From Thermomicrobiales bacterium (GTDB lineage: Bacteria > Chloroflexota > Chloroflexia > Thermomicrobiales > CFX8): a DNA stretch of 64,000 nucleotides. The DNA lies in contig JBDHWD010000006.1 of the NCBI GenBank assembly GCA_039810005.1, forward strand, positions 707-64,706, read 5' to 3'. The notes below the pieces were generated by a model. The model searched no databases, had not been told where the DNA came from, and saw only the letters and a list, made by a program, of their open reading frames with translations. Of this stretch, positions 1 through 18,409 are shown one piece after another. Numbering within the stretch: the stretch's first letter is position 1; every line of letters begins with the position of its first letter. A program made the position numbers and the translations under genes.

Positions 1-216
1 CTGATGGTATGATTACGCGGTTCGCGGGAAACCGCGACAATAGTTTGGCGTTGATCGGGAGTAGTAGACCGAACGCAGCGAGTCGCCGGTGGTGTGAGGC
101 GGCAACGCGGTCGAACTCGCCCGGGAGCCGTGGACGTGAATGCAGCCGCAGTAGCGTCCGCCGGTTAGCCTCCGTTAGCAGGCCACCAAGCGGGCCAGCC
201 TCACGCATATCATCAT

Positions 217-292
217 GGGGCTGTAGCTCATCCGGGAGAGCGCAACACTGGCAGTGTTGAGGTACGGGGTTCGAGTCCCCGCAGCTCCACCA
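217..292 (+). tRNA. tRNA-Ala (anticodon GGC), CCA encoded
   Basis: 76-nt cloverleaf. Acceptor GGGGCUG/CAGCUCC with G3:U70 (Ala identity pair). D arm GCUC-AUCCGGGA-GAGC. Anticodon arm CAACA-CUGGCAG-UGUUG (U33, GGC, A37). Variable loop AGGUA. T arm CGGGG-UUCGAGU-CCCCG. Discriminator A289, CCA 290-292. Confidence 0.92.
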
Positions 293-338
293 TATGGATG
301 ACGCGGGACTGGCCAAGCAGGGTGGTACCGCGGAAGCC

Positions 339-381
339 GAGCCTTTCGTCCCTGACCGGACGGAAGGCTCGTTGTTTTTCT
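339..381 (+). terminator. Intrinsic terminator of the T-box leader
   Basis: 13-bp stem GAGCCUUUCGUCC(339-351)/GGACGGAAGGCUC(358-370) with one G:U and a 6-nt loop, followed by GUUGUUUUUCU. The 5' arm is shared with the antiterminator. Confidence 0.85.
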
Positions 382-597
382 CGCTGTCGGCAGGACGACG
401 AGGTTCTGGGAGGCGGGGCGACGAGATGCCCGGATTCACGCGCGGTAGATCTCCCACGGGGCAGGCGACCGCTCGCCCCGGCATTGTCGTGTGCATGGCC
501 CGGCGCGCCGGGTTCCTTGCCGGGCCGCTCGGGCACAACTCCCGCGCGGCGAGCATGTTTCTCCAACGCTGATGCCTCACCGAGAAAGGGACCCGAG

Positions 598-3408
598 ATG
601 ACAACGACCAGACCGACGACTGAAAGCACCGGCCGCGCCACGAGGTCCGGACGGGGTAACCCGTTTGAGATGGAGATGAAGTGGCGGAAAGTCTGGGAGG
701 AATCCGGGCTGTACCGCACCGATCTGGAGGACACCTCCCGGCCGAAGTGGTACGCGGTCACGATGTATCCGTATCCCAGCGGCGATCTGCATATCGGCCA
801 CTGGTACGCGATGACCCCTTCCGACACCGCCGCGCGCTATCGCCGCATGCGTGGCTACAATGTGTGCTTCCCGATGGGCTTCGATGCTTTCGGCCTGCCG
901 GCCGAGAACGCCGCGATCAAGCGCAATATTCACCCGACGACGTGGACGCTGTCGAACATCGAGAACATGCGCGAGCAGATGCGCAGCATGGGCACGATGT
1001 TCGATTGGGATCGCGAGGTCGTTACCTGCCTGCCGGAGTACTACAAGTGGAACCAGTGGTTCTTCCTGAAGTTCCTGGAACAGGACCTCGCCTACCGGAA
1101 GAAACAGAACGTCTGGTGGTGTCCGAATGACCAGACAGTGCTGGCCAACGAGCAGGTCGTCGACGGTAAATGCGAGCGGTGCGGCGCAGAGGTGTACCAG
1201 CGCCAGATGGAGCAGTGGTTCTTCCGCATCACCAAGTACGCCGACGAGCTGCTGGAATATCCCGGCGTTGAGTGGCCCGAGAGCGGCAAGATCATGCAGC
1301 GCAACTGGATCGGCCGCTCCGAGGGCGCGCGGGTAACCTTCACCACCGAGCAGGGCGACCCGATCGAGGTGTTCACCACCCGGCCGGATACGCTGTGGGG
1401 CGCGACCGCGATGGTCCTGGCACCCGAGCATCCGCTGGTCGATACCCTGACGACCGACGAGCAGCGCGAGGCCGTGGAGGCCTACCGCCAGCAGACGGCC
1501 CGCGAGTCGGAGATCGATCGGCAGTCCACCGAGAAGGAGAAGACCGGCGTCTTCACCGGCGGCTACGCGACCAACCCGGTCAACGGGGAGCGCGTGCCGG
1601 TCTGGATCGCTGATTACGTCCTGATCACCTACGGCACCGGCGCGATCATGTCCGTCCCGGCCCATGACGACCGCGACTTCGCCTTCGCACTGAAGTTCGG
1701 CCTGCCGATCATCCCGGTCATTCGCCGTCTGGATGGTCAGGTACGGGCTGTTGTGCCGTTTGACGCGGTGAGCGACCGCGCCAACTTCCAGCACGCGCTG
1801 GGAACGATGGCGATTACCGCGACCGAAGCTGATGGCGAGTTCCACGTGTCGCTTGGCGGCCACCAGGTAGATGATTTCGTGGCGATGGTCCGCTCTTCGC
1901 TGGCGCCAGGGCACTGGGTTGCCTACGCCGGTGCGCGCAATGGCTTCATCTTCGCCGACACGTCGATCGAGCTGGACAGCGTCGCTGCCGACCGCGAGAT
2001 CGTTGAGCGCACGGGCGCAGGCCGGACAGCGATGGAGATCCTGCACAACGTGCCGTTCTTCGTCGCCGAGCCGGATGTCACGTTCCATAGCGACTACGGC
2101 ACGATGATGAACTCCGGCGAGCTTTCCGGCACACGCGGCGATGCCGCGATCGCGACGACCATCGACTGGCTGGTCGAGCGCGGAGTCGGGACTGCTGAAG
2201 TGACCTACCGGCTGCGCGACTGGCTGATTTCACGCCAGCGTTACTGGGGCACGCCGTTCCCGATCGTCTATTGCGATACGTGCGGTATCGTGCCGGTCCC
2301 CGAGGAGGACCTGCCGGTTGTCCTGCCGGACGACTCGCAGTTCAGCCCGACCGGCGAGTCGCCGCTGAAATCCGACGAGCGTTTCATCCACACGACCTGC
2401 CCATCCTGCGGCGGGCCGGGTCGGCGCGAGACTGACACCATGGACACCTTCATGGACTCGTCGTGGTACTGGTATCGCTACCTGACACCGCACAAGGACG
2501 ATGGCCCGATCGACGTCGATCTGGTGCGCCGCTGGACGCCAGTCGACCAGTACACCGGCGGCGTCGAGCACATGACGATGCACCTGCTGTACGCGCGCTT
2601 CTTCACCAAGGCGATGCGCGACATGGGGATGCTCGACTTCGACGAGCCGTTCCTGCGCCTGTACAACCAGGGCATCATCCTGGGCGAAGACTCAGAGAAG
2701 ATGTCCAAGAGCCGCGGCAACGTCGTCGATCCTGACGAGCTGGTCGGTGAGCTGGGCGCAGATACCGTTCGGCTGTTCCTGATGTTCCTGGGTCCCTGGA
2801 ATCTGGGCGGTCCGTGGAACTCGCGCGGCATTGCCGGCCCGCAGCGCTTCCTGGATCGCGTCTGGATGGTCGTGACCGAGACAGCAGGCAATCCGGCTGA
2901 GGCCCGTGAGGACGACGCTACTCGCCACCTGCGCCGCATCACCCACCAGACGATTCGCGCTGTCACTCGCGATATCGAGTCGTTCTCGTTCAATACGATG
3001 GTTGCCCACCTGATGGAATTCGTGAACGAGCTGATGCGCCAGAAGGACAGCGATGTCGCCAGTACTGCCGCCTGGCGTGAGGCGATCGAAACGCTACCGC
3101 TGCTGCTGGCCCCGGGCGCGCCGTACATCAGCGAAGAGCTGTGGAGCCGGCTGGGCAAGCCATTCTCGGTTCACACGCAGGCATGGCCAGAGTGGGACGA
3201 AGCACTCGCAGCCGAAGACACGATCGAGATCGCCGTTCAGGTAAACGGTAAGGTCCGCGGCCACGTCAGCCTGCCGCCAGATGTCGACCAGGCAGCCGCG
3301 CTCGATGCAGCGCGCGCCAGCGACCGTGTCGCTGAACACCTGGCCGGAAAGACGGTTGTCAAGGAGATCTACGTTCCCGGTCGACTGATCAACTTTGTTG
3401 TGAAGTAG
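598..3408 (+). CDS. leuS: Leucyl-tRNA synthetase
   Basis: HIGH motif (DLHIGHWY), KMSKS, CP1 editing block TTRPDTLWGATAMVLAPEHP, and RLRDWLISRQRYWGTPFP. ATG 598 is chosen because codons 298-597 of the long ORF overlap the tRNA and the T-box terminator. An alternative start is ATG 670 (MEMKW). Confidence 0.95.
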   Translation: MTTTRPTTESTGRATRSGRGNPFEMEMKWRKVWEESGLYRTDLEDTSRPKWYAVTMYPYPSGDLHIGHWYAMTPSDTAARYRRMRGYNVCFPMGFDAFGLPAENAAIKRNIHPTTWTLSNIENMREQMRSMGTMFDWDREVVTCLPEYYKWNQWFFLKFLEQDLAYRKKQNVWWCPNDQTVLANEQVVDGKCERCGAEVYQRQMEQWFFRITKYADELLEYPGVEWPESGKIMQRNWIGRSEGARVTFTTEQGDPIEVFTTRPDTLWGATAMVLAPEHPLVDTLTTDEQREAVEAYRQQTARESEIDRQSTEKEKTGVFTGGYATNPVNGERVPVWIADYVLITYGTGAIMSVPAHDDRDFAFALKFGLPIIPVIRRLDGQVRAVVPFDAVSDRANFQHALGTMAITATEADGEFHVSLGGHQVDDFVAMVRSSLAPGHWVAYAGARNGFIFADTSIELDSVAADREIVERTGAGRTAMEILHNVPFFVAEPDVTFHSDYGTMMNSGELSGTRGDAAIATTIDWLVERGVGTAEVTYRLRDWLISRQRYWGTPFPIVYCDTCGIVPVPEEDLPVVLPDDSQFSPTGESPLKSDERFIHTTCPSCGGPGRRETDTMDTFMDSSWYWYRYLTPHKDDGPIDVDLVRRWTPVDQYTGGVEHMTMHLLYARFFTKAMRDMGMLDFDEPFLRLYNQGIILGEDSEKMSKSRGNVVDPDELVGELGADTVRLFLMFLGPWNLGGPWNSRGIAGPQRFLDRVWMVVTETAGNPAEAREDDATRHLRRITHQTIRAVTRDIESFSFNTMVAHLMEFVNELMRQKDSDVASTAAWREAIETLPLLLAPGAPYISEELWSRLGKPFSVHTQAWPEWDEALAAEDTIEIAVQVNGKVRGHVSLPPDVDQAAALDAARASDRVAEHLAGKTVVKEIYVPGRLINFVVK

Positions 3409-3543: not shown

Positions 3544-5469
3544 CTATTCCTCCAGCGTCGTCAGGTCGCCGGGATCGACGCCGAGCTCTTCGGCTTTGAG
3601 CAGGCGGCGCATGATCTTGCCGGAGCGTGTCTTGGGCAGGCGTTCGCGGAACTCGATTTCGGCCGGGGTGGCGATTGGTCCGCAGATGCGGCGGACGTGT
3701 TCGGCGAGCGCGGCACGCACCTCGTCGGTCGGTGCGTTGCCGACACGCAGCGTGACGAATGCCTTGACCGCCTGACCCTTCACCTCGTCCGGCTTGCCGA
3801 TGACCGCCGCCTCGGCTACCTGAGGGTGGCTGACCAGCGCGCTCTCGACCTCGGCCGTCCCGATTCGATGGCCAGCGACGTTGATCACATCGTCGGCACG
3901 ACCGAGGACGGTGATGTAGCCGTCATCGTCGCGCATCGCGACATCACCAGACGTATACGCTCCCGGCACGATTGACCAGTCGCGCACATACCGCTCGGGA
4001 TCGTTATAGACAGTGCGATACATGTGCGGGAACGGCTGGCGCAGGATGAGTAGTCCGCCAACGCCATCTGCCACCGGATTCCCCGCTCGATCGACGACAT
4101 CGGCGACGACCCCTGCTAGCGCCTTGCCGGCCGATCCGGGCTTGGTTGCCATGGCGGGAAGCGTCGCGATCGTCGGGCCGCCAAGCTCGGTCTGCCACCA
4201 GTTGTCGATCAGCCAGGCGTGGTCGCCGTTGCTGCACAGCTCTCGGTATGCCCAACGCCAAGCCTCGGGGTTCAGCGGCTCACCGGCACAGGTCACCAGG
4301 CGGAGCGAGCGCAGGTTGTAGCGCGCCGGTGCGTCATCGCCAAACTTCATCAGCATCCGGATCGCCGTCGGCGCGGTGAACAGCACCGAGACACCGTACT
4401 TCTCGATGACCTCATAGATGATGGCGGAGTGCGGGAAATCTGGCGACCCTTCGCGGAAGACGGTTGTTGCGCCGAGGACGAGCGGCGCGTAGACGATGTA
4501 CGAGTGCCCAACGACCCAGCCGATGTCCGACATGCACCAGAAGACGTCGTCCTCCTTGATGTCCCAGAACGTCTGCAGGTGGTAGGTCGTCCCGACCATG
4601 TAGCCGCCGTGGACGTGAACAACCCCCTTCGGTCGTCCTGTCGTGCCGGACGTGTACAGAACGTAGAGTGGATGTTCGGCGTCGACCGGCTCGGCGCGGC
4701 AGTCGGGGCTGGCGTTGTTCAACAGAGCGTAGAAATCATCCTCGCGCGGATCTGTCAGCTCGACAGCCGGCGTTTCGCGCCGCCAGACGATGATGTGGCG
4801 TACCTGCTCCAGCCCGGTGATGGCGTCATCCACCATCGGCTTGAGTGGCACCGGCTTGCCGCGGCGATAGCCAACGTCGGCTGTCACCACGACGCGCGCC
4901 TCGGCATCGACGATGCGATCCCGCAATGCTCCAACGCCGAGACCGGCGTAGACGACGCTGTGGATCGCGCCGATCCGCGCGCAGGCCAGCATCGCGATGA
5001 TGCCCTCCAGTGACAGCGGCATGTAGATGACCACGCGGTCGCCGATTGAGACACCTCGCGAACGCAGGACATTGGCGAAGCGGTTCACCTGCCGCGCCAG
5101 CTGGCGGTAGGTCACGACTCGCTCACTGCCGTCCTCGCCGAGCGCGATGTAGGCGACCTTATTGGCGCGTGGTCCGCTCGCGTGGCGGTCGAGCGCATTG
5201 ACCGTGATGTTCACCTGCGCCCCGTCGAACCAGCGGTAGTGCGGGTGCTCGCCGGACATGACCGAGCTCCACGGTCGGAACCACTCGAAGTCGTTCGCGA
5301 CCTCAGCCCAGAACGCTTCCAGATCGGCGGCGGCGCGTGCGAACTCTGCCTCGGGGTCGGGCACGGTAGCCGCTGCGCGAGTATGCGCGGGCGGTTGAAT
5401 CCGCTCATCCTCGCTCAGGACACTTTCAATTTCCATCGGCTCGTCGTGCGGGCTCTGATTCCGTTGCAT
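3544..5469 (-). CDS. acs: Acetyl-CoA synthetase (AMP-forming)
   Basis: 641 aa. Motifs YTSGTTGRPKGV, WWQTELGG and SGKIMRRLL, with a typical Acs length and N-terminal region. Confidence 0.9.
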   Translation of the reverse strand: MQRNQSPHDEPMEIESVLSEDERIQPPAHTRAAATVPDPEAEFARAAADLEAFWAEVANDFEWFRPWSSVMSGEHPHYRWFDGAQVNITVNALDRHASGPRANKVAYIALGEDGSERVVTYRQLARQVNRFANVLRSRGVSIGDRVVIYMPLSLEGIIAMLACARIGAIHSVVYAGLGVGALRDRIVDAEARVVVTADVGYRRGKPVPLKPMVDDAITGLEQVRHIIVWRRETPAVELTDPREDDFYALLNNASPDCRAEPVDAEHPLYVLYTSGTTGRPKGVVHVHGGYMVGTTYHLQTFWDIKEDDVFWCMSDIGWVVGHSYIVYAPLVLGATTVFREGSPDFPHSAIIYEVIEKYGVSVLFTAPTAIRMLMKFGDDAPARYNLRSLRLVTCAGEPLNPEAWRWAYRELCSNGDHAWLIDNWWQTELGGPTIATLPAMATKPGSAGKALAGVVADVVDRAGNPVADGVGGLLILRQPFPHMYRTVYNDPERYVRDWSIVPGAYTSGDVAMRDDDGYITVLGRADDVINVAGHRIGTAEVESALVSHPQVAEAAVIGKPDEVKGQAVKAFVTLRVGNAPTDEVRAALAEHVRRICGPIATPAEIEFRERLPKTRSGKIMRRLLKAEELGVDPGDLTTLEE

Positions 5470-5803
5470 CGCTCATCATCGTCTCTGTTGGTGCAAGTGG
5501 TTTGGTGCGACAGGATATGGGAGATGGTTGGCACGTGACAACAGCCGGGTGCGCAATGGGATGCGAGTTTGCGTGTTCGCGCGGCGTGTCACGCAGGGGT
5601 GAACGTCGTTGGCGACGTGCTTTTGGGTGAGGCACGTGGGAAGTTCTGAGGTCCGACGCTACCTCCCTATTATTGCGGACTGTAATAAGCGGGCCGTTTC
5701 GCGCGTTCTATTATCGTTTTCGGCCGAAAACTGAAATAGCGTCGCCAACAGGTGGCCACGGATATGGAGCTCGGCACGCAGCGACGTGGCGGCCAACCCG
5801 GCC

Positions 5804-5828
5804 GGGTGTATGCATTTCGCCCCTACAT
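5804..5828. repeat. Degenerate copy of the GGGCGTATGCAATACGCCCCTACAT palindromic repeat
   Basis: GGGTGTATGCATTTCGCCCCTACAT matches 22 of 25 positions of the repeat at 43999-44024. Confidence 0.6.
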
Positions 5829-5837
5829 TGCGGCCCC

Positions 5838-6770
5838 CTACAACGACGCGCGCTGGTGCGGGTCCATCAGGTCGCGGAGGCCGTCGCCGACGAAGTTGAT
5901 CGAGAGCGCCGTGATGAAGATGGCCAGGCCCGGCAGCGTCGGCAGCCAGATGTCGCTCCACGAGAACATGAACGCCTGCGACTCCTGCAGCATGTAACCC
6001 CAACTGGGTGTCGGCGGCTGGATGCCGAGGCCGAGGAAGCTGAGGAACGCCTCCGAGATGATGAGTCGCGCGACCTGTACAGTACCGATGACGATGATTG
6101 CGTTCACCAGATTCGGCATGATGTGCCGAGCCATCAGCCGCAGGTTGCTGACGCCGAGCACACGCCCGGCGTGGATGTAATCCAGCGACTTGATGCGCTC
6201 GACCTCAAACTTCACGACCCGCGTGTAGATCGGCCATGCGCCGATCCCGAGGACAAGAACAACGTTCGTGAAGCTCGCGCCAAGCACGGATATGACCGCT
6301 AGCGCGAGCAGAATGAACGGGAACGTCATCATCACGTTGACGAGTGTCGAGATGACGGCATCAATCCGACCGCCGAAAAAGCCGGCCATCACACCGAGCG
6401 CGATGCCGATTGCGCCGGATAGCAGCGTTGCCAATAAGCCGACGGCCAGTGCGATCCGGGTGCCATACATCAGGCGCGTGGCGTAGTCGCGGCCGATGCC
6501 ATCCGTGCCGAGCGGGTGCGACCAGCTGCCGCCCTGCCAGATTGGCGGCTGGAGACGATCCACGGTGCGTCCTTCTTCTGGCGTGTACGGCGACAGGATC
6601 GGCGCGGCAGCAGCGATAAAGACCAGTATGAGCAGGATAACGCCGCCGATAACTGACATCCTGAGCTTCCAGGCAGCCTGCAGGACCGAGCGCAGCGTGC
6701 GCTGACGCAGGCGCTGCTGAGAGAAGGCGGAATTAACAGAATCCTGCGTGGCGGAGCCGACCGATGCCAT
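5838..6770 (-). CDS. ABC transporter permease, DppC/OppC type
   Basis: 310 aa, multi-TM. BPD-transport EAA-like region (SLDYIHAGRVLGVSNLRLMARHIMPN). The N-terminal OppC-type helix is followed by a loop with PLGTDGIGRD. Confidence 0.85.
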   Translation of the reverse strand: MASVGSATQDSVNSAFSQQRLRQRTLRSVLQAAWKLRMSVIGGVILLILVFIAAAAPILSPYTPEEGRTVDRLQPPIWQGGSWSHPLGTDGIGRDYATRLMYGTRIALAVGLLATLLSGAIGIALGVMAGFFGGRIDAVISTLVNVMMTFPFILLALAVISVLGASFTNVVLVLGIGAWPIYTRVVKFEVERIKSLDYIHAGRVLGVSNLRLMARHIMPNLVNAIIVIGTVQVARLIISEAFLSFLGLGIQPPTPSWGYMLQESQAFMFSWSDIWLPTLPGLAIFITALSINFVGDGLRDLMDPHQRASL

Positions 6771-6828
6771 GAACCCTCCAACTGCTGTCGCCGATCAAGG
6801 TCGTTCGACAGACCCACTGCCGGTGCTG

Positions 6829-7758
6829 CTACTGGCGCAAACGTGGATCGATGAACCCGACGACAATATCGACAGACAGATTGACCAGGCTGATGATGAT
6901 CGCAAGTGTGACGACAGCCGCCTGCGTAACCGGAAAATCAGCATTTCGAATCGAGTCGATGGCCAGCAGCCCAACCCCCGGCCAGGCAAAGACCGACTCA
7001 GTGATGACCGCGCCACCGAGGAGTTGGCCGAATTGCAGACCGAGTACCGTGATGACCGGGATCATCGTGTTGCGGAAGGCGTGGCGACTGAGCACGACCC
7101 GCTCACTCAGGCCCTTTGCCCGCGCGGTGCGGACATAGTCCTGCGTCAGCGCGTCGAGCATGCCGGACCGCACCAGTCGTTCGGTGACCGGCGCGAGGAA
7201 GACACCCAGAACGACAGTCGGCAGAATCAGATGCTTGAGTCGATCAATGCCCATCTCGCCATAGCCGGATGGCGGCAACCATTTCAGGTTCACGCCGAAG
7301 ACAATGATGAGCATCAGGCCGAGCCAGAAGATCGGCATCGCCTGACCGGCAACGACGAACAGCGTCGACAGGTTGTCCCAGAGCGTGTAGCGCTTGTAGG
7401 CGGAGAGGATGCCCATCGGGATGGCGATGACGGTCGCCAGGATCGTACCCGCGACGGTCAGGAGCAGCGTGGCCGGCATGCGCTCCATCACCAGCGACAG
7501 GGCTGAGCGCTCTGTGCGGAATGAGTTCCCGAAATCGCCGCGGACCGCGCTGGACAGGAAATCGGCGTACTGTATGTACAGCGGCCTGTTGAAGCCCATT
7601 TCCTCGCGGAAGATCTCGCGCTGCTCGTAGGGGGTCTCCGGCGGCAGCAGGACGTTGACCGGGTCCCCGATCATGTTCGTGATGATGAACACGATGACCG
7701 AGATACCAAAGACCGCGATCAGCATCTGGATCACGCGGTGCATGACATATGCGCCCAT
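6829..7758 (-). CDS. ABC transporter permease, DppB/OppB type
   Basis: 309 aa. Starts MGAYVMHRVIQMLIAVFGISVIVF. Contains DYVRTARAKGLSERVVLSRHAFRN, typical of DppB. Confidence 0.85.
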   Translation of the reverse strand: MGAYVMHRVIQMLIAVFGISVIVFIITNMIGDPVNVLLPPETPYEQREIFREEMGFNRPLYIQYADFLSSAVRGDFGNSFRTERSALSLVMERMPATLLLTVAGTILATVIAIPMGILSAYKRYTLWDNLSTLFVVAGQAMPIFWLGLMLIIVFGVNLKWLPPSGYGEMGIDRLKHLILPTVVLGVFLAPVTERLVRSGMLDALTQDYVRTARAKGLSERVVLSRHAFRNTMIPVITVLGLQFGQLLGGAVITESVFAWPGVGLLAIDSIRNADFPVTQAAVVTLAIIISLVNLSVDIVVGFIDPRLRQ

Positions 7759-7832
7759 TGGCGAGAGCCTCTCCAGGGATGGCTGACGACCGGTTGTTGA
7801 CCGGGCCGCCAGCCATCCCGGCTGGAATCGGT

Positions 7833-9605
7833 TTACGCCTTCGGCTTGGCGGTGAAGTACATGTCAATCTCGTCCGCCCGGGGCTTCCAGTCGACCTTGT
7901 TGCTGACGCCCCAGACCGAGTGGAACCCCCACATGAAGATCACTGGCGCTTCGTCACGGACGAGGCGCTGTGCCTTCGAGTAGATCTCCTTGCGATGATC
8001 CTGATCGAGCGAGCTGCGGCCCTCATCGAGCAGTGCATCCAGGTCCGGGTTGTTGTAGTAGGTGAAGATCGAATCGGTGTGCAGCATGTCCCAGTAGATG
8101 CCGTCTGCATCGAACACGGAATACGAGCCCCAGTTGTATGAGCACATCGGCCCGGCGTTGCCTTCGTTGTGGCGCGTCGTGAAGACGTTGCCGTCGCTGA
8201 GTGTCTCGAACTCGACGCGGATACCAACGGCGGCGAGATCGCGCTGCATTGCCTGGTCGACCTGATCCTGGTTCGGCATCGAGGACGGCCCACGCACCCA
8301 CTTCACATCAATGCCATCCGGGTAACCTGCTTCGGTCAGCAGCTGCTTGGCTTTGTCCGGATCGTATTCGTGCGGCTCGATTGATGGATCGAAGCCGAAG
8401 TGCATCGGGTTCAGCATGGCCGGTGTGCGATCGCCGCCTGGTTGCAGCGCATCGATGTAGCCCTGGATATCGCACGCATGGTTCGCGGCGTGACGGACCT
8501 TCACATCCTGGAACGGATTCGGGCCGGAGCGCCCCATCGCGTCGAGGCGCGTAATGCCAACGCGCAGAATCGCTTGCGTGATCGGCGTCGCGACGCCCGA
8601 ATTCTCAACCGCTTTCATCTGGTCGAACGGGACGACGCGGACGATATCGACGTTGCCGGCCAGCAGCTCAGCGAGCTGCGTCGGAACGCCCGGCACGAAG
8701 CGCAGAATCAGATCTTTGTATGCGGGCTTGACGTCCGGATTCCAGTAGTCGTCGTTGCGGGTGAGAACAAGCTCCTGGCCGTGCTTCCACTCAACAAACT
8801 TGTACGGGCCGGAGCCGACAGCGTTCTCTGCCAGCCACTCATCGCCCTTCTCCTGCGCCAGCTTCTCGGGGATCATCTGGAAGTTCTGCAGGCGCTCAAC
8901 GAAGATCGGATAGGGCTCCTTCGTGTTGACGTGGACGGTGTAGTCATCGACGATATCGACGCCGGCGATCTGGGCATGGTTGCCCAGCTGCGGGCTCTTC
9001 TGGTCAGGGTTGATAACGCGGTCCCAGTTCCACTTGACCGTCTCAGCAGTGAAGTCGTCGCCGTTGTGGAACTTCACGTCCTGGCGGAGCTTGATCTCCC
9101 AGACGGTCGGCTCGATGTTCTCCCAGCTCTCGGCGAGCCACGGCTCGATCAGGTTCGTTTCCGCGTTGCGCTCTCCGAGGTTGTCGTGGGTGTGATAGAA
9201 GGCGATGATGCCGGTGCGCAGGTTGTGCATGTGCGGATCCATCGTCGGCAGGTCGGACTGGTCGAGGATGACCCGCAGCGTCCCGCCTTCGCCGCCAGCG
9301 TCGGTGCTGCCTTCGCTCTCGCCGGTCGTTGCCTCAGCTGGCGCGTCTGTCGCCCCAGCTGGCGCGTCCGTCGCCTCCGCGGGGGCACTGGTTGCCGCCC
9401 CGCCGCCGGTAGTGCCGGAGTTGGCGGAATTGCCGTCATCGTCGTCGCCACCGCATGCTGCCAACAGGCCAGCGACTGAGCCTGCGCCAGCCCAGACCAT
9501 CATGGCCCTCATCAATGTGCGTCGGTCGATTCTGCCTTCGCGATAGAAGCGCTGCCAGTTTGCATAGATTTTGTCATTGATCTGCTGGCCAGTCAGGTCG
9601 CTCAC
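7833..9605 (-). CDS. ABC transporter substrate-binding lipoprotein, family 5 (peptide/nickel type)
   Basis: 590 aa. Twin-arginine-like RRTLMRAMMVWAGAGSVAGLLAACGG lipobox, a low-complexity linker, then an SBP_bac_5-like body. Confidence 0.8.
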   Translation of the reverse strand: MSDLTGQQINDKIYANWQRFYREGRIDRRTLMRAMMVWAGAGSVAGLLAACGGDDDDGNSANSGTTGGGAATSAPAEATDAPAGATDAPAEATTGESEGSTDAGGEGGTLRVILDQSDLPTMDPHMHNLRTGIIAFYHTHDNLGERNAETNLIEPWLAESWENIEPTVWEIKLRQDVKFHNGDDFTAETVKWNWDRVINPDQKSPQLGNHAQIAGVDIVDDYTVHVNTKEPYPIFVERLQNFQMIPEKLAQEKGDEWLAENAVGSGPYKFVEWKHGQELVLTRNDDYWNPDVKPAYKDLILRFVPGVPTQLAELLAGNVDIVRVVPFDQMKAVENSGVATPITQAILRVGITRLDAMGRSGPNPFQDVKVRHAANHACDIQGYIDALQPGGDRTPAMLNPMHFGFDPSIEPHEYDPDKAKQLLTEAGYPDGIDVKWVRGPSSMPNQDQVDQAMQRDLAAVGIRVEFETLSDGNVFTTRHNEGNAGPMCSYNWGSYSVFDADGIYWDMLHTDSIFTYYNNPDLDALLDEGRSSLDQDHRKEIYSKAQRLVRDEAPVIFMWGFHSVWGVSNKVDWKPRADEIDMYFTAKPKA

Positions 9606-10009
9606 ATCGACACCTCCTACCGTTGTGCGTCACAGGCTGGTGCGCCACTCACTATGAGTCGACGCCCATGACTGCTGGCGGATCGTGGATTTGCGGATTG
9701 CCCCGATGCTACGAGTGATTGAGAAATCCGTCAACATCGAAAGATAACGTTCGCGGCAATGCTGATATCCGCGTAAGAGGATGCCGCATATCGCAAGTGC
9801 GAGCAGCATCTAACTGCCTTGCAATGTGCGTTGGGAGGGTGATTCGTATGCGCTTGCGGAACAGGTCGTGATTGCAGGCGACGCACGTGTATATGGTCGC
9901 CGTGCGCTCTGCGTCAACGGACTGCCGCACCAACAGTGTCTGGGGCGTGGGGCTTCCGCCGATGGACCTTCAATGAGGGATGTTCGATGTGCCGGTGTGT
10001 GGGATGGCT

Positions 10010-10040
10010 GGTGCGCAGGCGGACTAGCCGCCTGCGCACC
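10010..10040 (-). terminator. Terminator-like hairpin after the D-aminoacylase gene
   Basis: Perfect 13-bp stem GGTGCGCAGGCGG/CCGCCTGCGCACC with a 5-nt loop, 7 nt downstream of the stop at 10048-10050. No clear U tract. Confidence 0.5.
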
Positions 10041-10047
10041 CAATCAG

Positions 10048-11694
10048 TTAGCGTCGACCAGGGCCGTCGACGATGCGGCCCGGCATTGCGCCGGTGTGCT
10101 CGCTGTCCTTGAGGACGCGGCCACCGTTGACCCAGACATCGCGGATGCCGGTCGAGAGCTGGTGTGGATCGGTGAACGTTGAGTTGTCGCGCACCGTCTC
10201 CGGATCGAAGACGACGACATCAGCCAGCATGCCCTCGCGCAGTAGACCGCGATCGCGCAGGCTCAGCCGGTCGGCGACCGACGACGTCATCTTGCGGATG
10301 GCGTCCTCTAGCGTGATGACACCCTCGTCGCGGACGTAATGACCGAGAACACGAGTGTAGGTGCCGTAGGCGCGTGGGTGGGTCGGGTTGGTCTGGCCGG
10401 TCGGGTCGATGCCTCCGGCGTCGGTGCTGATCTTGATCCACGGCTGCTTCAGCTGCCGGCGGACGTTCTCCTCGCTCATCATGAAGAAGATCGTCGAGAT
10501 GCGGTGCCCCTCGGACAGCAGCAGCGCGCGGACAGTATCCGGCCACTCCTCGCCGCGCATTTCGGCAATCTCCGGCAGGCGCTTGCCGATGTACTGACGG
10601 TTCTCTTCCTTCACGAAGCCGACCGGCATGACGCCTTCGAGATTCTGCGAGCGCGACATCGACGGTGCCTCGCGCGGCGGGTCGATCATCTCGGCGCGCA
10701 TGATCGCCCAGGTGCGCTCATCGGCGAGATTGTCGAAGAGCTTGCCGCCTTCGGACGCCCAGTTCGGGACGAGCGTCGTTAGTCCAGTGCCGCTGGCGAC
10801 ATACGGATACATGTCCGACGTGATGTCGATGCCCTCGGCGCGTGCCTCGTCGATCATTTCCATCGCGCGCGGCATCAGCTCCCAGGTCTGCTTACCGGAT
10901 GCCTTCAGGTGATAGACCTCGACCGCGACGCCTGAGCGGCGACCGATCTCGATTGCCTCGGCCATGCCTTCCAGCAGCAGGTCCGCCTCGGAGCGCAGGT
11001 GCGTGATGTAGACGCCACCATGTGAAGCGATCACCTTGCAGACCTCAACCAGCTCGTCGGTCGTGGCGTACGAGCCCGGCGGGTAGATCAGCGCAGCCGC
11101 GATGCCGAATGCGCCATCGCGCATGCACTCGTCCATGACCTTCGTCATCGTCGCGAGCTCGTCGCTGGTCGCCTCGCGCATGTCCCAGCCCATGGCGTAC
11201 TCGCGGATTGTCGCGCCGCCGACGAACGAGCCGATGTTGACCGAGACCCCGCGCTGCTCGATCGCTTCAAGCCAGGCGCGGAAGTTTGACCAGCCGCGAG
11301 CCCGTTCGGTCCACTCGTCGGTCACCTCGGACGCGACGATCGACGAGCGCAGCGGGCTGGTGATGCGTCCGCCAAATGGCGATGGCGTCCAGCCTTCACC
11401 CATGATCTCTGTCGTGACGCCCTGGGTGACCTTGGAGAGCGATCGGCCCTCGGCGAAGAGCGGCATGATCGAATGCGACTGGATATCGATGAAGCCGGGG
11501 CAGACGACATGGCCGGTCGCGTCAACAACCTCGGCCGCGCTGGTTGGATCAATGTGGCCGGCCGGGGCGATTGCGGCGACCTTGTCGCCGGCAAGCGCGA
11601 CATCGCCGTAGAACCACGGGTTGCCGGTACCATCGATAATCCTGCCGCCCCGGATCAGTACGTCATAGGTCGAAGCCACCAGATTCCCCTTCAC
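10048..11694 (-). CDS. N-acyl-D-amino-acid deacylase (D-aminoacylase) family amidohydrolase
   Basis: 548 aa. N-terminus DVLIRGGRIIDGTGNPWFYGDVALAGDKVAAI...PGFIDIQSHS, typical of D-aminoacylases. Metal-binding amidohydrolase fold. Confidence 0.7.
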   Translation of the reverse strand: MKGNLVASTYDVLIRGGRIIDGTGNPWFYGDVALAGDKVAAIAPAGHIDPTSAAEVVDATGHVVCPGFIDIQSHSIMPLFAEGRSLSKVTQGVTTEIMGEGWTPSPFGGRITSPLRSSIVASEVTDEWTERARGWSNFRAWLEAIEQRGVSVNIGSFVGGATIREYAMGWDMREATSDELATMTKVMDECMRDGAFGIAAALIYPPGSYATTDELVEVCKVIASHGGVYITHLRSEADLLLEGMAEAIEIGRRSGVAVEVYHLKASGKQTWELMPRAMEMIDEARAEGIDITSDMYPYVASGTGLTTLVPNWASEGGKLFDNLADERTWAIMRAEMIDPPREAPSMSRSQNLEGVMPVGFVKEENRQYIGKRLPEIAEMRGEEWPDTVRALLLSEGHRISTIFFMMSEENVRRQLKQPWIKISTDAGGIDPTGQTNPTHPRAYGTYTRVLGHYVRDEGVITLEDAIRKMTSSVADRLSLRDRGLLREGMLADVVVFDPETVRDNSTFTDPHQLSTGIRDVWVNGGRVLKDSEHTGAMPGRIVDGPGRR

Positions 11695-11773
11695 TCACTC
11701 GACTGCCTCGCCGGGCATTATCGACGATGGCATCGTATTCGCAACTGGAGAAGAGATCGTTGGAGGTGACCGA

Positions 11774-12502
11774 GTGACCGATAACCCACGTCCGTGGCCC
11801 GTGCCCAACCGCCCGTGGCTGATGCGACAGAACTGGCACGACATCCTGTTCATGCACTGGTCGGTGCCGCTCGCAGACCTTCGGAGGGTGGTGCCGCCGC
11901 AATTGCCATTGGATGTCTATGACGGCTCTGCCTGGATCGGCATTGTGCCGTTTCGCATGTCCGGCGTGCGTCCGCGGCTCGTACCGCCGATGCCACTGAT
12001 ATCGGCCTTCCCTGAGCTGAATGTGCGGACCTACGTGACGATCGACGACAAGCCGGGCGTCTACTTTTTCTCGCTCGATGCAGCGAATCCGCTTGCTGTC
12101 GTTGCAGCCCGGCGGCTTGATCTGCTCTATCAGTACGCCCGCATGTCGTGCGAATGGCGCGACGGCTGGGTGGAGTACGACAGCGAACGGTTGGGTAATG
12201 CGGCTGTCCCGGCGCGTCTGTCAATGCGCTACCAGCCGGCTGGTGACGTCTTCATCGCCAAGCCCGGCAGCCTTGAAGACTTCCTGACACGACGTTACTG
12301 CCTCTATGCCGTCGGTCGACATGATGAGGTCAGTCGGCTGGAGATCGACCACGTCCCCTGGCCACTGCAGCCGGCGCGCGCCGAGATCCGGCTCAACACG
12401 ATGGTTAAGCCGCTTGGCTTGCAGCTCCATGGTGATCCGCTGCTCCACTTCGCGCGCCGGATGGAGATGGTTGCCTGGTGGCCGCAGGCGATCGAGGTCT
12501 GA
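11774..12502 (+). CDS. DUF2071 (YqjF-like) family protein
   Basis: GTG start 7 nt after GGAGGTGA. W-x-M-x-Q-x-W-x-D-x-L-F-x-HW and FPELNVRTYV motifs. Confidence 0.65.
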   Translation: MTDNPRPWPVPNRPWLMRQNWHDILFMHWSVPLADLRRVVPPQLPLDVYDGSAWIGIVPFRMSGVRPRLVPPMPLISAFPELNVRTYVTIDDKPGVYFFSLDAANPLAVVAARRLDLLYQYARMSCEWRDGWVEYDSERLGNAAVPARLSMRYQPAGDVFIAKPGSLEDFLTRRYCLYAVGRHDEVSRLEIDHVPWPLQPARAEIRLNTMVKPLGLQLHGDPLLHFARRMEMVAWWPQAIEV

Positions 12503-12505
12503 GCC

Positions 12506-13483
12506 TTACCGCCGCCGCAGGCCGCGCAGAAGGAACAGCACGTTCGCCGGCCGCTCTGCCAGGCGGCGCATCAGGTAGAAGTACCACTCCGAGCCATACG
12601 GCGTCGCGACAAGCACCCGCTGCCCTCGCTGAACCAGATCCAGCTGGTACTGGCTGCGGATGCCGTAGAGCATCTGAAGCTCGTACTGCTCGTTCGTCAG
12701 CTCATGCTGCCTCGCGAAGGCGATGACGTGATCGATGATGCGCTCGTCGTGCGTAGCGATTGCGGTGAAGCTGTTGGCGGTCAGCATTCGTTCGGCGAGC
12801 TGAATGTAGGCCGCGTCGACATCGGCCTTCTTCTGGTGCGCCACCGTCGCCGGTTCCAGATACGCGCCCTTCACCAGCCGCAGGTTCGGCTTCAGCGGCA
12901 GCAGCGACTCCAGATCGCCCGGTGTCCGGAACAGCGCCGACTGCAGGACGGTGCCGACGTTCTCGTGGCCGGCCTCGCGTAGCCGTCGATAAATCCGGAG
13001 CGTCGGGTCGACGCGCGCCGACTCTTCCATGTCAATGCGAATGAAGTTGCCGAGCGTGGCCGCGTGCCTGACCAGCTGCTCGACGTTGGCGTAGGCAATG
13101 TCCTCTCCCAGGTCAAGACCGAGATGGGTGAGCTTCAGCGCAATGTTCGTCTGCAGCCCTTCGGCGGCGATCCGATCGAGGACCGCTTTGTATTCGGCTA
13201 CGACCGCAGCGACCTCGCGTTCGTCGCGGACTGCCTCGCCGAGCAATGTCGTGTTGGTGCGCAACCCCTGCTCGTTCAGTCGCCGCAGCACCGGCACCGC
13301 CGCGTCGAAGTCCTCACCCGCAACGAAGCGTGACCCGCCAAGCTGCATCCCATAGCGGCGAACGCCACTGGCAACCAGCCGATTGTGCGTCGCGGCGAGG
13401 ATGCCTTTGCGGAACAAGGGATTGGCGACCGACGAGAGCCTGGTTGCGATCGGATCGAACATCGTCGTGACCACAGACGCCAC
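12506..13483 (-). CDS. Proline dehydrogenase (monofunctional)
   Basis: 325 aa, PRODH TIM-barrel pattern (LKLTHLG, IRIDMEES, VKGAY, ATHD, FQMLYGI-like ELQMLYGI). Confidence 0.8.
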   Translation of the reverse strand: MASVVTTMFDPIATRLSSVANPLFRKGILAATHNRLVASGVRRYGMQLGGSRFVAGEDFDAAVPVLRRLNEQGLRTNTTLLGEAVRDEREVAAVVAEYKAVLDRIAAEGLQTNIALKLTHLGLDLGEDIAYANVEQLVRHAATLGNFIRIDMEESARVDPTLRIYRRLREAGHENVGTVLQSALFRTPGDLESLLPLKPNLRLVKGAYLEPATVAHQKKADVDAAYIQLAERMLTANSFTAIATHDERIIDHVIAFARQHELTNEQYELQMLYGIRSQYQLDLVQRGQRVLVATPYGSEWYFYLMRRLAERPANVLFLLRGLRRR

Positions 13484-13550
13484 TTCGGAGTGTCCCTTTC
13501 AATGCTGGTCGGTCAGTCGCCGAAGCAACCGACCGACCACGTTCTGCCTG

Positions 13551-15107
13551 CTACAGCAGCTCACCGATCGACTTGGCCTCGACGAAGGCCATCAGGTAAT
13601 CCGGACCTCCACCCTTGGTGTTGGTGCCGCTCAGCTTCATCCCGCCGAACGGGTGGACGCCCATCATCGCGCCGGTGGACTTGCGGTTGAGATAAAGGTT
13701 GCCGACCTCGAACTCCTCGCGCGCCTTCTCCAGCTTGGCGCGATCCTTCGCGTAGACTGAGCCGGTCAGCCCGTACTCGGAGTCGTTGGCAACCTCCAGC
13801 GCGTGGTCGAAGTCGCGCACCTTGACCAGTGCCAGCACCGGTCCGAAGACCTCCTCGCAGGCAATCCGCGAGTCTGGCGCGGCGTCAGCAATGATCGTCG
13901 GCTCGATGTAGTAGCCCGCATTATCCAGCGCGCTGCCACCGAGAACGAGACGACCCTCGTCCTTGCCGATCTCAATGTACTTCAGGATCGACTCATACTG
14001 GCGCTTGTCGACGACGGCACCCATCGTTGCCGTGCCTTCAACGCCGGAGCCGACCGAGACGGTCTCCTTCGCGCGGGCGACGATGCGATCGACCATCTCA
14101 TCGTAGACATCCTGATGGATCAGGGCGCGCGAGCAGGCCGAGCACTTCTGGCCGCTGAAGCCGAACGCCGACGTGACGATGCCGGCCGTGGCTGCATCGA
14201 GATCAGCGTCAGCATCGACGATGATCGCGTCCTTGCCGCCCATCTCGGCCGTCACACGCTTCAGCCAGCGCTGGCCGGGCTGCACCTTCGCGGCGTTCTC
14301 ATAGATGCGCACGCCGACATCCTTCGAGCCGGTGAAGGCGACGAAGCGCGTCTTCGGATGCTCAACCAGCGCGTCGCCGATATCCGACCCACTACCGGGC
14401 AGGAAGTTGACGACGCCAGCCGGTACGCCGGCCTCCTCCATCGCCTCAACCATCTTGTAGCCGATGACGGGCGTGTTGCTGGCCGGCTTCAGGATCACGG
14501 CGTTGCCTGCTGCGACCGGAGCCATCGTCATACCGGTCAGAATCGCGCAGGGGAAGTTCCAGGGCGGAATGATGACGCCGACGCCGAGCGGGACGTAGAC
14601 CATCTCGGTCGCTTCGTCGGGCAGGTGCGCCAGCGGCACCGGCTGGGCGAGCTCAAACGCCTTGCGGCCGTACCACTCCAGGAAGTCGATCGCCTCGCAG
14701 ACCTCGCCATCGGCCTCGTCCCAGGGCTTGTCGAGCTCGAAGACCATCCATGCAGCCAGCTCCAGCTTGCGGCGGCGCAGGATAGCAGCCATCTTGAACA
14801 GCGTGCTGGCGCGGCCCGTCGCCGACATCTTCTTCCATGACTGGAACGCACAGGTCGCGGCTTCGATCGCGTCTTCAACGTCCTGCGGTCGCGCCTTCGC
14901 GACCTCGCCGACGACCTCGTCCGGCTTACCAGGATTCGTCGATGTAATCCATTCGCCCGTCTCGCGGCGCTCCCCACCGATAACCAGTGGGTAGCGCTTC
15001 CCGAGTTGCGAGCGAACATCATCCAGCGCGGCCTTCATCGCCGCGCGGTTTTCCTCGATCGAGAAATCGGTAGAGGGTTCGTTATGAAACGCTGCACGAA
15101 GTGCCAT
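13551..15107 (-). CDS. L-glutamate gamma-semialdehyde (1-pyrroline-5-carboxylate) dehydrogenase
   Basis: 518 aa aldehyde dehydrogenase. Motifs FTGS, EMGGKD and GQKCSACSR (catalytic Cys). Adjacent to PRODH. Confidence 0.85.
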
Positions 15108-15186
15108 AGTGATCTGGTGTCCCTTTCACGCCACCAAGTGGCTCACCGGCGAGCCACTTTTCCACCTCTAAGCGTACGTCGGGCTG

Positions 15187-18100
15187 CTAGTCTCCGACGA
15201 CTCGAACCCTGGATGACGCAATTGCGTCGTTCAGCGCTCGCACCTCAGTATCCCGAATAGCTGCAAGGCGGGCTTTCGCCGATTCAAGCTGCTCGCTCAG
15301 CTCCGCGAATACGTCGCGTGCTTGTTGGGGCGGAGCGTAATCTGCTCCGTCGACAGAGTTGAATAGCGCATTCAGCTTCTCATGAAGTCCGCTCGGCCAA
15401 AGCTGTGCTTGATGGATGTTGACATCGATCAGGGTCGGCAGGATTTCGCGAAGCTGTTCCTCTACAGAATCAGCGGCCTGGCGGACAGTCTCATTGGATG
15501 TTCGCCGCTGCCAGATGGCTGTCTGGTCGAGCAGCGCGTCAATCTCATTGATTGTCCGATTCGTCTCGCTCAGTCGGTCGCGCAACTCTCGCAGCATATC
15601 CCGCTGGGCGGCCAGGTCAGCGTCGCTTGACTCAATGCGCGGATCGCGCACTACTTCAAATCCTTGCAGGTGGTCGGCACCATCGACCGTCAGCCGTACC
15701 TGATACTGGCCGGGCAAAACGGTTGGGCCGTCGGGCTGGTCCCACGCTTGCAATGCGGCGGTGACTGACTCGGCTCCCATCTCCCGCATGTTCCAGACGA
15801 AGCGGTTGAGGCCGACTGACGTTGTTGGGCGGGGGGCGTGCTCGTCATCACTCCGATAGGTGCGGATCTCGCTGCCGTCACTGTCAAGGATTGAAAGCGC
15901 CAACGGCTCAGTTTGTGTCTCAGCAAGATAGTAGTGGATGGCGACACCTTCGGGCGGATTCTCGCCTGCGGTAAGGAGTTGTCTGCCCGTTGTTCCGTCT
16001 GGTTGGTCGACTGGGTCAAAGAGCACCTGACTTGTGCCGGCCGAGCCGTAATTCACAACACCCTTGACGGGCGCACCGCCAAACCCGCGATAGCGCCGCA
16101 AACGGACGCTGGGCTTCGGCGCAAAGAGCCGTGCTGCCTCAGTGCCTGACTCCTGCGCGAGCTGCCGCAGGACGGTGACGTCATCAAGAATCCAGAATGA
16201 GCGTCCGTGAGTCGCGATTACCAGCTCGTCACCCTTCACGACCAGATCGTGAACCGGTACGACTGGGAAGTTCCCACTCACGCGCTGCCACTGCCCGCCG
16301 TCATCAAACGAGACGTACAGGCCCGATTCGGTGCCCGCGTAAAGCAGGCCGCGCACCTGTGGATCTTCGCGGATCACACGGGTGAAGTCGTCCGCCGGAA
16401 TCCCGTTTGTGATGAGTTCCCAGGTTTCGCCGTAGTCGCTGGTCTTGTAGAGATAGGGCTTCGTGTCGTCGAGCTTGTATCGCGTAGCCGCCAGGTAGGC
16501 GATTCCGTCTTCGTGCGGCGAGAGCTCGATGATGGAGATGAGCGCCCACTCGGGAAGATCGCTCGGTGTAATGTTCTGCCAGTTCCGACCACCATCTTCC
16601 GAGATATGGACCAGCCCGTCGTCCGAGCCTGCCCAGAGCATTCCCGGCTGAGTCGGTGATTCGGCTAGCGCGAAGATTGTGCAGTACACCTCCGCGCCGG
16701 TGTTGTCGCGAGTGATTGGGCCGCCCGACGGAACCAGCTTTTCCGGATCGTTCCGTGTCAGATCTGGACTGACCACTTCGAAGCTTGAGCCCAGGTCGCG
16801 CGAGCGGAACAGCTGATTGCCCGCGACATAGAGGTCGTGCGGGGGATGCTGAGAGAACATAATGGGAAAGGTCCACTGCAGCCGATACTTCAGGCTTTCC
16901 GCTCCGGCCCCCCAGCCATACAGCTCTGGCCAGACGGTAATGTTGCGGATTTGGCCGGTGCGATGGTCGTAATGCGTCATGATGTCGTTGTAGGCGCGTC
17001 GGCCGGCCGGGCCGGAGGCGATGACGTGCCAGGGCTCGTCTGGCTTGATGGCGATATAGCCACTCTCGCCACCACCCGGCGCATACCAGCCGCGCTCGTG
17101 GATGGCACCGTCGGTTGTCGAGCTCGGAACGCTGATCGCGCTGTTATCCTGCTGCGATCCGTAGACGCGATACGGAAACTGGTCGTCGGTTATGACGTGG
17201 TAGAGCTGCGCCGTTGGCTGGTTGTAAATGCTCGACCAGGTGGCACCACCGTTGAACGATACACAGGCGCCGCCATCGTTTCCTTCAATCATGCGCTGGT
17301 TATCGAGCGGATCGATCCAGAGCGCATGGTCGTCGCCGTGTGGCGTGGGGATGCGGTCGAAGCTGGCTCCGCCGTCGATCGATTTCCAGAGGCTGTAGTT
17401 CTGGACGTAGACCGTGTCCGGGTCCTGCGTGTCAGCCGTAATGTGCATGTAGTACCAGGGACGGGTGCGCAGCAGTGCCTGCTCGCTGAGGCGAATCCAG
17501 GTGTCGCCATAGTCGTCGGAGCGGAATACAGCACCGTCTTCGGCCTCGACCAACGCCCAGACACGGCCCGGCTTCGCTCGTGAAGCAACGACGCCGATCT
17601 TGCCCAGCAAGCCCTGGGGCAGGCCGGAGTTGCGGGTGATCTCCTCCCACGTATCTCCACCGTCGAAAGAGCGCCAGATTCCCGAATCTTCTCCGCCATT
17701 GACCAACGTCCATGGATAGCGTTGGACCTGCCAAACGGCGGCGTAGAGGATGCGCGGGTTGGTCATGTCCATCGAGACGTCGTGTGAGCCGGCGCGATCG
17801 CTCTTATAGAGAACCTTCTCCCATGTCTCACCGCCATCGGTTGTCCGGTAGACGCCGCGTTCCTCGTTCGGTCCGTACGCATGACCGAGTGCGGCGGCGT
17901 AGGCGACATCAGGGTTTGTTGGGTGGATCTGGATCTTGCCGATGTGGCGCGTATCAGCCAGGCCGACATTTCGCCAGCTCCGCCCCGCGTCAGTCGACTT
18001 GTAGATTCCATCGCCGTGGACGACGTTGCCGCGGATACTCGTCTCGCCCATGCCGGCGTAGATCACGTTCGGGTCCGACTCGGCGACAGCCAGCGCTCCG

Positions 18101-18333: not shown

Positions 18334-18409
18334 GAATTCGGTTCCTCCCCTGAGAATCGTTTCGTCGATTCCTGACGAGTGTTCGCTCAATCTGATCTGA
18401 CGACACTGT

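Follow-up and report, generated by a model that had tools for sequence, protein, structure and literature searches.

A complete tRNA-Ala(GGC) in the Stem III loop of leucine-specific T-box leaders upstream of leuS

The 64,000-nt stretch of a Thermomicrobiales genome analysed here (positions 707 to 64,706 of contig JBDHWD010000006.1, assembly GCA_039810005.1; hereafter the window) begins with a T-box riboswitch leader upstream of leuS, and this leader holds a complete transfer RNA (tRNA) of another identity, tRNA-Ala(GGC). The locus raises the question of whether a riboswitch that reads tRNA-Leu can still work with a second tRNA inside its fold, and whether the inner tRNA is a gene in its own right. 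We consider it probable that both are the case. A genuine tRNA-Ala(GGC) gene appears to sit in the Stem III apical loop of a working T-box that is specific for Leu and attenuates transcription, as a passenger that shares promoter and terminator with its host and would be excised after the riboswitch decision. An initial annotation of the window had already claimed a complete tRNA-Ala(GGC) inside such a T-box, and covariance models in the window and 99 related loci bear this out. Throughout, comparative counts out of 96 or 99 refer to the nested loci among the matches listed.

We examined the anatomy of the leader, all features of which lie on the plus strand. With permissive filters, the Rfam T-box model RF00230 matched positions 42-356 end to end (model positions 1-219, 86.9 bits, E 1.9e-19). 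The gathering score is 93 bits for this model and 29 for the Rfam tRNA model. At default Rfam thresholds the tRNA alone passes, because the T-box score lies 6 bits under the curated threshold, and this shortfall is due to the insertion penalty alone. The T-box match departs from the model in one place: the apical loop of Stem III bears a 108-nt insertion, in which the tRNA-Ala(GGC) lies. The alignment to RF00230 placed Stem I at 48-128, Stem II at 131-160, the IIA hairpin at 162-174 and the F-box CCGUUA at 172-177. The specifier loop GAA-CUC-G occupies 113-119, and its specifier CUC (Leu, 116-118) fits the regulated gene leuS downstream. All parts of a canonical leuS T-box named by the initial annotation were recovered by RF00230, ARAGORN, the terminator scan and folding, each at or within 1-2 nt of where it had been drawn. 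The check proposed there, a run of RF00230 and ARAGORN, gave a T-box alignment spanning both sides of the tRNA and a tRNA call at 217-292.

Is the tRNA a substitute for Stem III, or an addition to it? Stem III is indispensable for T-boxes, yet its stem and loop are variable and tolerate insertions, and the motif 5'-RRRxG-Stem III-AA-3' defines the discriminator domain (PMC7583486; PMC7778990). This signature is present in the window. The RF00230 alignment and folding both gave a purine string AAGCG (RRRNG, 188-192), the Stem III strands GGCCAG (193-198) and CUGGCC (309-314), and the conserved AA (315-316) 3' of Stem III, so that the domain reads AAGCG-[193-198...309-314]-AA. The 5' strand continues with interruptions to 213. 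In the predicted fold the extended, interrupted helix 193-213/294-314 reaches up to the tRNA. The tRNA-Ala(GGC) is therefore on the tip of a retained Stem III and not in its place. The earlier claim that the tRNA sits at the Stem III position was right about the nesting and wrong about a replacement, as the pairs 193-198/309-314 are kept with the tRNA in their loop. The inner flanking pairings CGC/GCG and UCAUC/GAUGA, also proposed earlier, hold as a window-specific extension of Stem III, in a slightly different predicted register.

The decision-making part of the leader follows closely. The T-box core AGGGUGGUACCGCG (319-332) carries the bulge UGGU (323-326), and the antiterminator spans 319-353 in the RF00230 alignment. 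The terminator scan and folding gave an intrinsic terminator at 338-381, which consists of a 14-bp hairpin (338-371) and a U tract; in the scan the hairpin runs into TTGTTTTTCT. The two structures have 338-353 in common and are mutually exclusive. Their predicted folding energies are -26.4 kcal/mol for the terminator versus -13.0 kcal/mol for the antiterminator. The UGGU bulge has the form UGGN, which fits the NCCA end of a cognate tRNA with A73. The discriminator base of bacterial tRNA-Leu is A73.

The downstream gene leuS (598-3408, plus strand) encodes a leucyl-tRNA synthetase (LeuRS) of 936 aa with the Pfam domains tRNA-synt_1, tRNA-synt_1_2 (the LeuRS editing domain) and Anticodon_1. An exact-protein look-up of this LeuRS gave no match; two metagenome contigs, L323 and L324, carry a called gene of the same length. 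The spacer between terminator and leuS (382-597, 216 nt) is unusually long and GC-rich, and showed no excess of structure over shuffled sequences (z = 0.02). A 92-aa open reading frame (ORF) at window positions 294-572 is called as a gene on L324; it is likely spurious, because it overlaps the antiterminator.

The insert itself was called as a tRNA-Ala(GGC) gene at 217-292 (plus strand) by ARAGORN and scored 61.1 bits with the Rfam tRNA model. Its anticodon GGC lies at 250-252, and it has G3:U70, A73 and an encoded CCA end. GOLLD RNA, a large RNA that carries an embedded tRNA, had no match in the window; the host RNA is the T-box.

How widespread is the nesting? Ten of 80 loci of the closest LeuRS relatives hold a tRNA-Ala(GGC) between Stem II and the T-box core. 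Nine of these tRNAs sit 13-40 nt upstream of the core and one (L048) 76 nt upstream. The nearest LeuRS relative is from a Thermomicrobiales genome, at 74% identity. RF00230 spanned the tRNA end to end in 9/9 Chloroflexota loci tested (50-118 bits) and in 8/8 loci from Bacillota, Atribacterota and Armatimonadota (57-133 bits), five of the latter being above the gathering score at 114-133 bits. Nine loci with the same insertion, not counting the window, scored 96-133 bits. We also searched 185,579 species, each represented by one genome, for GGGTGGTACC preceded at 26-56 nt by a T-loop of any tRNA; neither the tRNA identity nor the gene downstream was constrained. This identity-agnostic scan gave at least 119 loci. 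Among the matches listed, 95 had a tRNA-Ala(GGC) 14-44 nt before the core, and three more were linked to leuS with the tRNA region cut off at the locus end. The gene downstream was leuS in nearly all listed loci with enough downstream sequence. At the seven scan loci with other tRNAs (Pro, Tyr, Leu, Glu and three Ser) a T-box was found in 0/7, and these pattern matches were rejected as cases of other tRNAs nested in T-boxes; the T-box test covered these seven loci, and 14 matches without a tRNA call lay outside it.

The survey comprises at least 99 distinct nested loci from about a hundred species in at least four phyla. The carriers in Chloroflexota are Thermomicrobiales, Sphaerobacter, Chloroflexia, Ktedonobacteria, Anaerolineae, Caldilineae and Limnocylindria. 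Those in Bacillota are Syntrophomonadaceae, Thermosyntropha, Peptococcaceae, Desulfotruncus, Desulfitispora, Thermacetogeniaceae and Thermoanaerobacteraceae. Armatimonadota and an Atribacterota single-cell genome complete the list.

We then compared the T-box parts across these loci. The specifier was CUC in 94/96 related leaders and the bulge was UGGU in 99/99 loci. The RRRNG-type motif was present in about 90 of the 96 loci and the AA in 92. In an alignment made from sequence only, pairing reached 80-100% in Stem I, Stem II, IIA and the antiterminator helices A1 and A2, and compensatory pair types were numerous. For Stem I, the sub-helices were 80-99% paired with many pair types; Stem II was 95% paired over 96 leaders, each position showing 5-7 pair types; and A1 and A2 were 98-100% paired. 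A strict hairpin-plus-U-tract terminator test was passed by 83/99 loci. These patterns point to selection on the T-box.

Stem III was tested with an alignment anchored on its flanking motifs, in which complementarity was not used, and covariation was scored on a spliced alignment of 91-96 loci. The mean contiguous pair run was 4.6, compared with 2.3 +/- 0.13 for shuffled partners. The fraction of paired cells was 78%, against 58% in shuffles and 25-44% in slid registers. Cells with a double change numbered 177 versus 69 +/- 11. The covariation score was 0.591 versus 0.242 +/- 0.018 in shuffles, and 0/500 shuffles reached 0.591. These results indicate that Stem III closes around the tRNA.

The same data bear on the explanation that the T-box is a decaying relic split by the tRNA insertion, with leuS read through from the tRNA gene and no sensing of tRNA-Leu. 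The window score just under the gathering score (86.9 vs 93) would fit a relic, and some relatives have lost the T-box and kept tRNA and leuS together. However, the shortfall comes from the insertion alone, and relatives with the same insertion reach 133 bits. Moreover, 96-99 loci have kept the specifier, the bulge, the purine string, every helix and the terminator, with covariation. We regard a relic as the least probable of the explanations considered, with hardly any chance of being correct.

The nested tRNA was compared in the same way. G3:U70, A73 and the GGC anticodon occurred in 99/99 listed related loci, and the acceptor and other stems showed compensatory changes. The base before G1 (position -1) was U in 67/99 loci, against a background of 21%. 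A U at this position is a known preference of bacterial ribonuclease (RNase) P. CCA was encoded in 77/99 loci and not encoded in 22/99. This conservation points to selection on the insert as a tRNA.

Given that both parts look selected, does either depend on the other? In relatives with leuS T-boxes that have no tRNA, a plain short Stem III hairpin stands within the same RRRNG...AA frame. Conversely, eight Thermomicrobiales/Chloroflexia genomes have the tRNA-Ala(GGC) about 140-240 nt upstream of leuS with no detectable T-box (L356 from Nitrolancea hollandica Lb, L330, L332, L335, L362, L373, L406 and L426). In these eight the T-box appears to have been lost and the adjacency of tRNA and leuS kept. 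In Dehalococcoidia the same tRNA-Ala(GGC) is located elsewhere in the genome. T-box and tRNA are thus separable parts, because plain-Stem III leuS T-boxes and T-box-free tRNA-leuS arrangements both exist, and for the same reason each part can be taken to work without the other. The alignment of relatives suggested by the initial annotation therefore has a lineage-dependent outcome: many lineages have kept the insert, others have a plain Stem III, and some carry the tRNA without the T-box.

These arrangements also weigh on the explanation that the insert is not a tRNA gene at all, but a tRNA-like structural element that is never released, such as a folding scaffold or a protein-binding module. 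The insert is embedded in a helix, its 3' end leads straight into structured RNA, and unreleased tRNA-like modules are known in other RNAs. All three observations would suit such an element. Against it, G3:U70, A73 and GGC are invariant in 99/99 loci while the stems vary in a compensatory manner, and these features matter only for charging by alanyl-tRNA synthetase and for decoding. The enrichment of U(-1) and the occurrence of the same tRNA alone upstream of leuS in the eight genomes and elsewhere in Dehalococcoidia argue in the same direction, as the T-box-free or remote copies are necessarily ordinary genes there. We consider an unreleased element very improbable.

Two further arrangements were seen around leuS T-boxes. 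At L009, L012, L017, L026 and L041, tRNA-Ala(CGC)/(GGC) stands ahead of an entire leuS T-box whose Stem III is plain. In addition, a tRNA-Ala(CGC) lies 19-107 nt upstream of Stem I at L014 (2559-2631), L049, L050, L055 and other Anaerolineae/Ktedonobacteria loci. At L014 no promoter would fit between this tRNA and Stem I, so the T-box stands between two tRNAs in what resembles a tRNA operon running into leuS.

The geometry of the insert was the next point of comparison. The linkers that join Stem III to the tRNA measure 8 to ~70 nt in Chloroflexota. In Bacillota they are short and narrow in range: G1 lies 9-13 nt from the Stem III base, and 10-15 nt separate the tRNA 3' end from the AA. The linker variability, the missing CCA and the free-standing copies indicate that the tRNA is an ordinary gene and that a fixed insert geometry is not required.

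This evidence can be set against the view that the tRNA is more than a passenger and belongs to the working machinery of the switch. Such a role could take several forms. The tRNA could be a co-transcriptional spacer or timer that widens the window for tRNA-Leu binding. Its excision could matter instead: an RNase P cut after the decision could split Stem III, dismantle the discriminator, free tRNA-Leu and leave a protective 5' hairpin on the leuS mRNA. It could also act as a mimic in cis, with the 3'-extended ACCA of tRNA-Ala competing for the UGGU bulge. An integral role is favoured by the same tRNA identity at the same site in four phyla, by the short and narrow Bacillota linkers and by the complementarity of the tRNA-Ala ACCA to UGGU in the window. 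A precedent for processing-coupled control is the thrS leader of Bacillus subtilis, whose cleavage upstream of the terminator reportedly stabilises the read-through mRNA. On the other side stand the 22/99 loci in which CCA is not encoded, the wide range of the Chloroflexota linkers, the plain-Stem III leuS T-boxes in related lineages and the tRNAs that stay by leuS after loss of the T-box. We judge an integral role to be unlikely. The initial annotation had proposed the cis pairing of ACCA with UGGU; as a conserved feature it is rejected in view of the loci without CCA and the variable linkers. Since CCA is absent from 22/99 loci, this pairing is no general requirement.

If the tRNA is a passenger, where does its transcription begin? 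The window contains a -10 hexamer TATGAT with an upstream TG at 8-13 (plus strand), and the left window edge cuts the site. L323, which was found via a neighbouring permease gene, is a metagenome contig with the same locus that extends leftwards past the window. It shows a -35 element TTGACT 16 nt upstream of the -10 hexamer, just beyond the window edge (TTGACT-16 nt-TGgTATGAT). This was the single promoter-like site (10/12, extended -10) in 750 nt of L323, against 0.1 expected, and this near-consensus site lies directly upstream of the leader. A promoter scan of the window and L323 found no promoter between Stem I and the tRNA. Among the relatives, 53 of about 91 loci had a promoter match of at least 10/12 upstream of Stem I, 17 of these matches being perfect (TTGACA-17-TATAAT), and the best matches in the region from Stem I to the tRNA were mostly at or below 7/12. 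The leader, the nested tRNA and the antiterminator/terminator probably form one transcription unit under the promoter upstream of Stem I.

A conserved TGT was noticed 7-9 nt past the -10 hexamer in 40 Bacillota/Armatimonadota loci, with the G in 29/40. Speculatively, this motif could mark a likely G start site, reminiscent of the GTP (guanosine triphosphate)-sensing stable-RNA promoters. Such promoters are known from Firmicutes.

From the anatomy, conservation, covariation and separability of the two parts, we infer an order of events, processing steps, expression levels and a benefit as follows. A strong promoter before Stem I would drive the synthesis of Stem I and Stem II, then of the 5' arm of Stem III, the nested tRNA and the 3' arm, and lastly of the antiterminator/terminator. 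The tRNA would fold as an independent domain at the tip of Stem III. The discriminator would still form, because only the variable loop is extended. With the tRNA on an insertion-tolerant loop, the riboswitch would still read uncharged tRNA-Leu(GAG) via CUC and UGGU. The decision between termination and read-through would fall within about 90 nt after the tRNA. After the decision, RNase P would cut at G1 and 3' processing would free the tRNA-Ala(GGC). The 3' end would be made exonucleolytically where CCA is encoded, and by RNase Z and the CCA-adding enzyme where it is not. Since every transcript bears the tRNA, terminated or not, the abundant terminated leader would double as a tRNA precursor. 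Finally, leuS would be expressed by regulated read-through from a promoter of stable-RNA strength.

Several points weigh against this passenger reading. That mature tRNA-Ala comes from this locus is predicted on indirect grounds, namely the enrichment of U(-1) and the free-standing copies of the same tRNA in relatives. In the 77/99 loci with CCA the trailer is paired in Stem III and is followed by a stable terminator hairpin, so the route to a mature 3' end is not obvious. The extended Stem III of the predicted window fold (193-213/294-314) could hinder the access of RNase P. We also scanned for the copy number of tRNA-Ala(GGC). An anticodon-arm pattern was swamped by Proteobacteria, and a narrower clade-specific pattern was used, with at least 118 loci analysed; one assembly appeared twice among the ~90 matches listed, both times at contig ends. 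Metagenome-assembled genomes are the source of many loci, and mis-binning probably explains a few of the taxon labels (Proteobacteria, Bacteroidales). Finally, the identity and the position of the tRNA are conserved across four phyla, beyond what neutral cargo would strictly call for, and this leaves room for an integrated role.

One form of such integration can be put forward tentatively; we think it possible, yet doubtful. The tRNA and the riboswitch may be one device, in which a stable-RNA-type promoter drives leuS and passes growth-rate control on to it, with leuS throttled by the T-box. Excision by RNase P would irreversibly split the discriminator after each decision, recycle tRNA-Leu, yield tRNA-Ala from all transcripts, including terminated leaders, and leave a protective 5' hairpin on the read-through leuS mRNA. 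If this is true, no riboswitch before it would have had its action tied to tRNA maturation.

The arrangement was compared with known systems. Full-text searches brought up no published account of a T-box that contains a tRNA gene, although early or key T-box papers may carry a remark on it; this agrees with the suggestion of the initial annotation that none had been described. The nesting itself seems to be new. By every sequence test applied, its host is a member of the T-box family and its insert is a tRNA-Ala. With canonical T-box leaders (RF00230; B. subtilis tyrS, glyQS and leuS) it shares the Stem I/specifier loop, Stem II/IIA-B/F-box, RRRNG-Stem III-AA, the UGGN bulge, the competing antiterminator and terminator, and the place upstream of an aminoacyl-tRNA synthetase gene. 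Unlike in those leaders, the Stem III loop here holds a complete tRNA gene of another identity (Ala). The leader is also ~90-110 nt longer and would double as a tRNA precursor.

Insertions in T-box discriminators have been described, namely stem Sa in staphylococcal glyS and insertions in Stem III and helix A2 of translational T-boxes (PMC9177973, PMC7583486). As in the present leader, extra RNA is tolerated there in variable parts. Those insertions are simple helices without a known independent function, whereas the insert here is an autonomous gene with identity elements. The nearest precedent is GOLLD, a large RNA of unknown function, often borne by prophages, with an embedded tRNA in a single-stranded junction (PMC12990946). 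Both are cases of a tRNA within a larger structured non-coding RNA; the host here, however, is a well-understood riboswitch that itself binds another tRNA.

Excision of a tRNA by RNase P and 3' processing, from a longer transcript that has a further product as well, is familiar from the tRNAs of rRNA (ribosomal RNA) operon spacers and from tRNA-mRNA co-transcripts such as that of the Escherichia coli tufB operon. Those tRNAs lie between functional units, whereas the tRNA here is within the fold of a regulatory RNA, and a helix of that RNA has to close around it. In B. subtilis the thrS T-box leader, studied by Condon, Putzer and colleagues, is reportedly cut upstream of its terminator after the decision, and the read-through mRNA then starts with a stabilising hairpin. 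That cut is reportedly of the RNase J/Y type at an unstructured site; here the enzymes of tRNA maturation would cut and would free a useful product.

T-boxes are among the best-studied riboswitches, yet a whole clade with a second, unrelated tRNA inside the fold has apparently passed without comment, and several of its members score above the Rfam threshold. The arrangement suggests that a regulatory RNA and a stable RNA gene can nest, with a single promoter and terminator common to both. Terminated leaders, which are usually deemed waste, would gain a productive use. In this clade, nature also tests how large a load the discriminator can bear in its Stem III loop. Two testable questions arise, namely in which order the riboswitch decides and RNase P cuts, and whether leuS is coupled to stable-RNA promoter control. 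For annotation, T-box finders limited in length will miss or split nested leaders.

Two variations were observed in what follows the nested leader. At L011 a class IV aminotransferase gene (ilvE-like; PF01063, E 1.5e-54) lies at 2022-2969 between the nested-tRNA T-box and leuS. The order aminotransferase then leuS was also seen at L157, L123, L149, L158, L159, L163, L164 and L171. In loci of this type the leader apparently controls a two-gene operon. At L093 (6055-8000, Desulfotruncus alcoholivorax DSM 16058) the gene after an intact nested Leu T-box (130.7 bits) is not leuS but an AMP-dependent ligase-like ORF, which extends past the end of the locus. Here either the leader was re-used or leuS has moved.

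In the rest of the window, ARAGORN called a 94-nt tRNA-Leu(CAA) at 59403-59496. This call is probably a false positive, as the Rfam tRNA model had no match there at E <= 1. The minus strand of 3544-20000 encodes an acetyl-CoA-synthetase-like AMP-binding enzyme, an ATP-binding cassette (ABC) transporter of the oligopeptide type (SBP_bac_5 and two permeases), an amidohydrolase, a DUF2071 protein, a proline dehydrogenase and an aldehyde dehydrogenase. The gene order of this neighbouring region was matched on the metagenome contigs L323 and L324.

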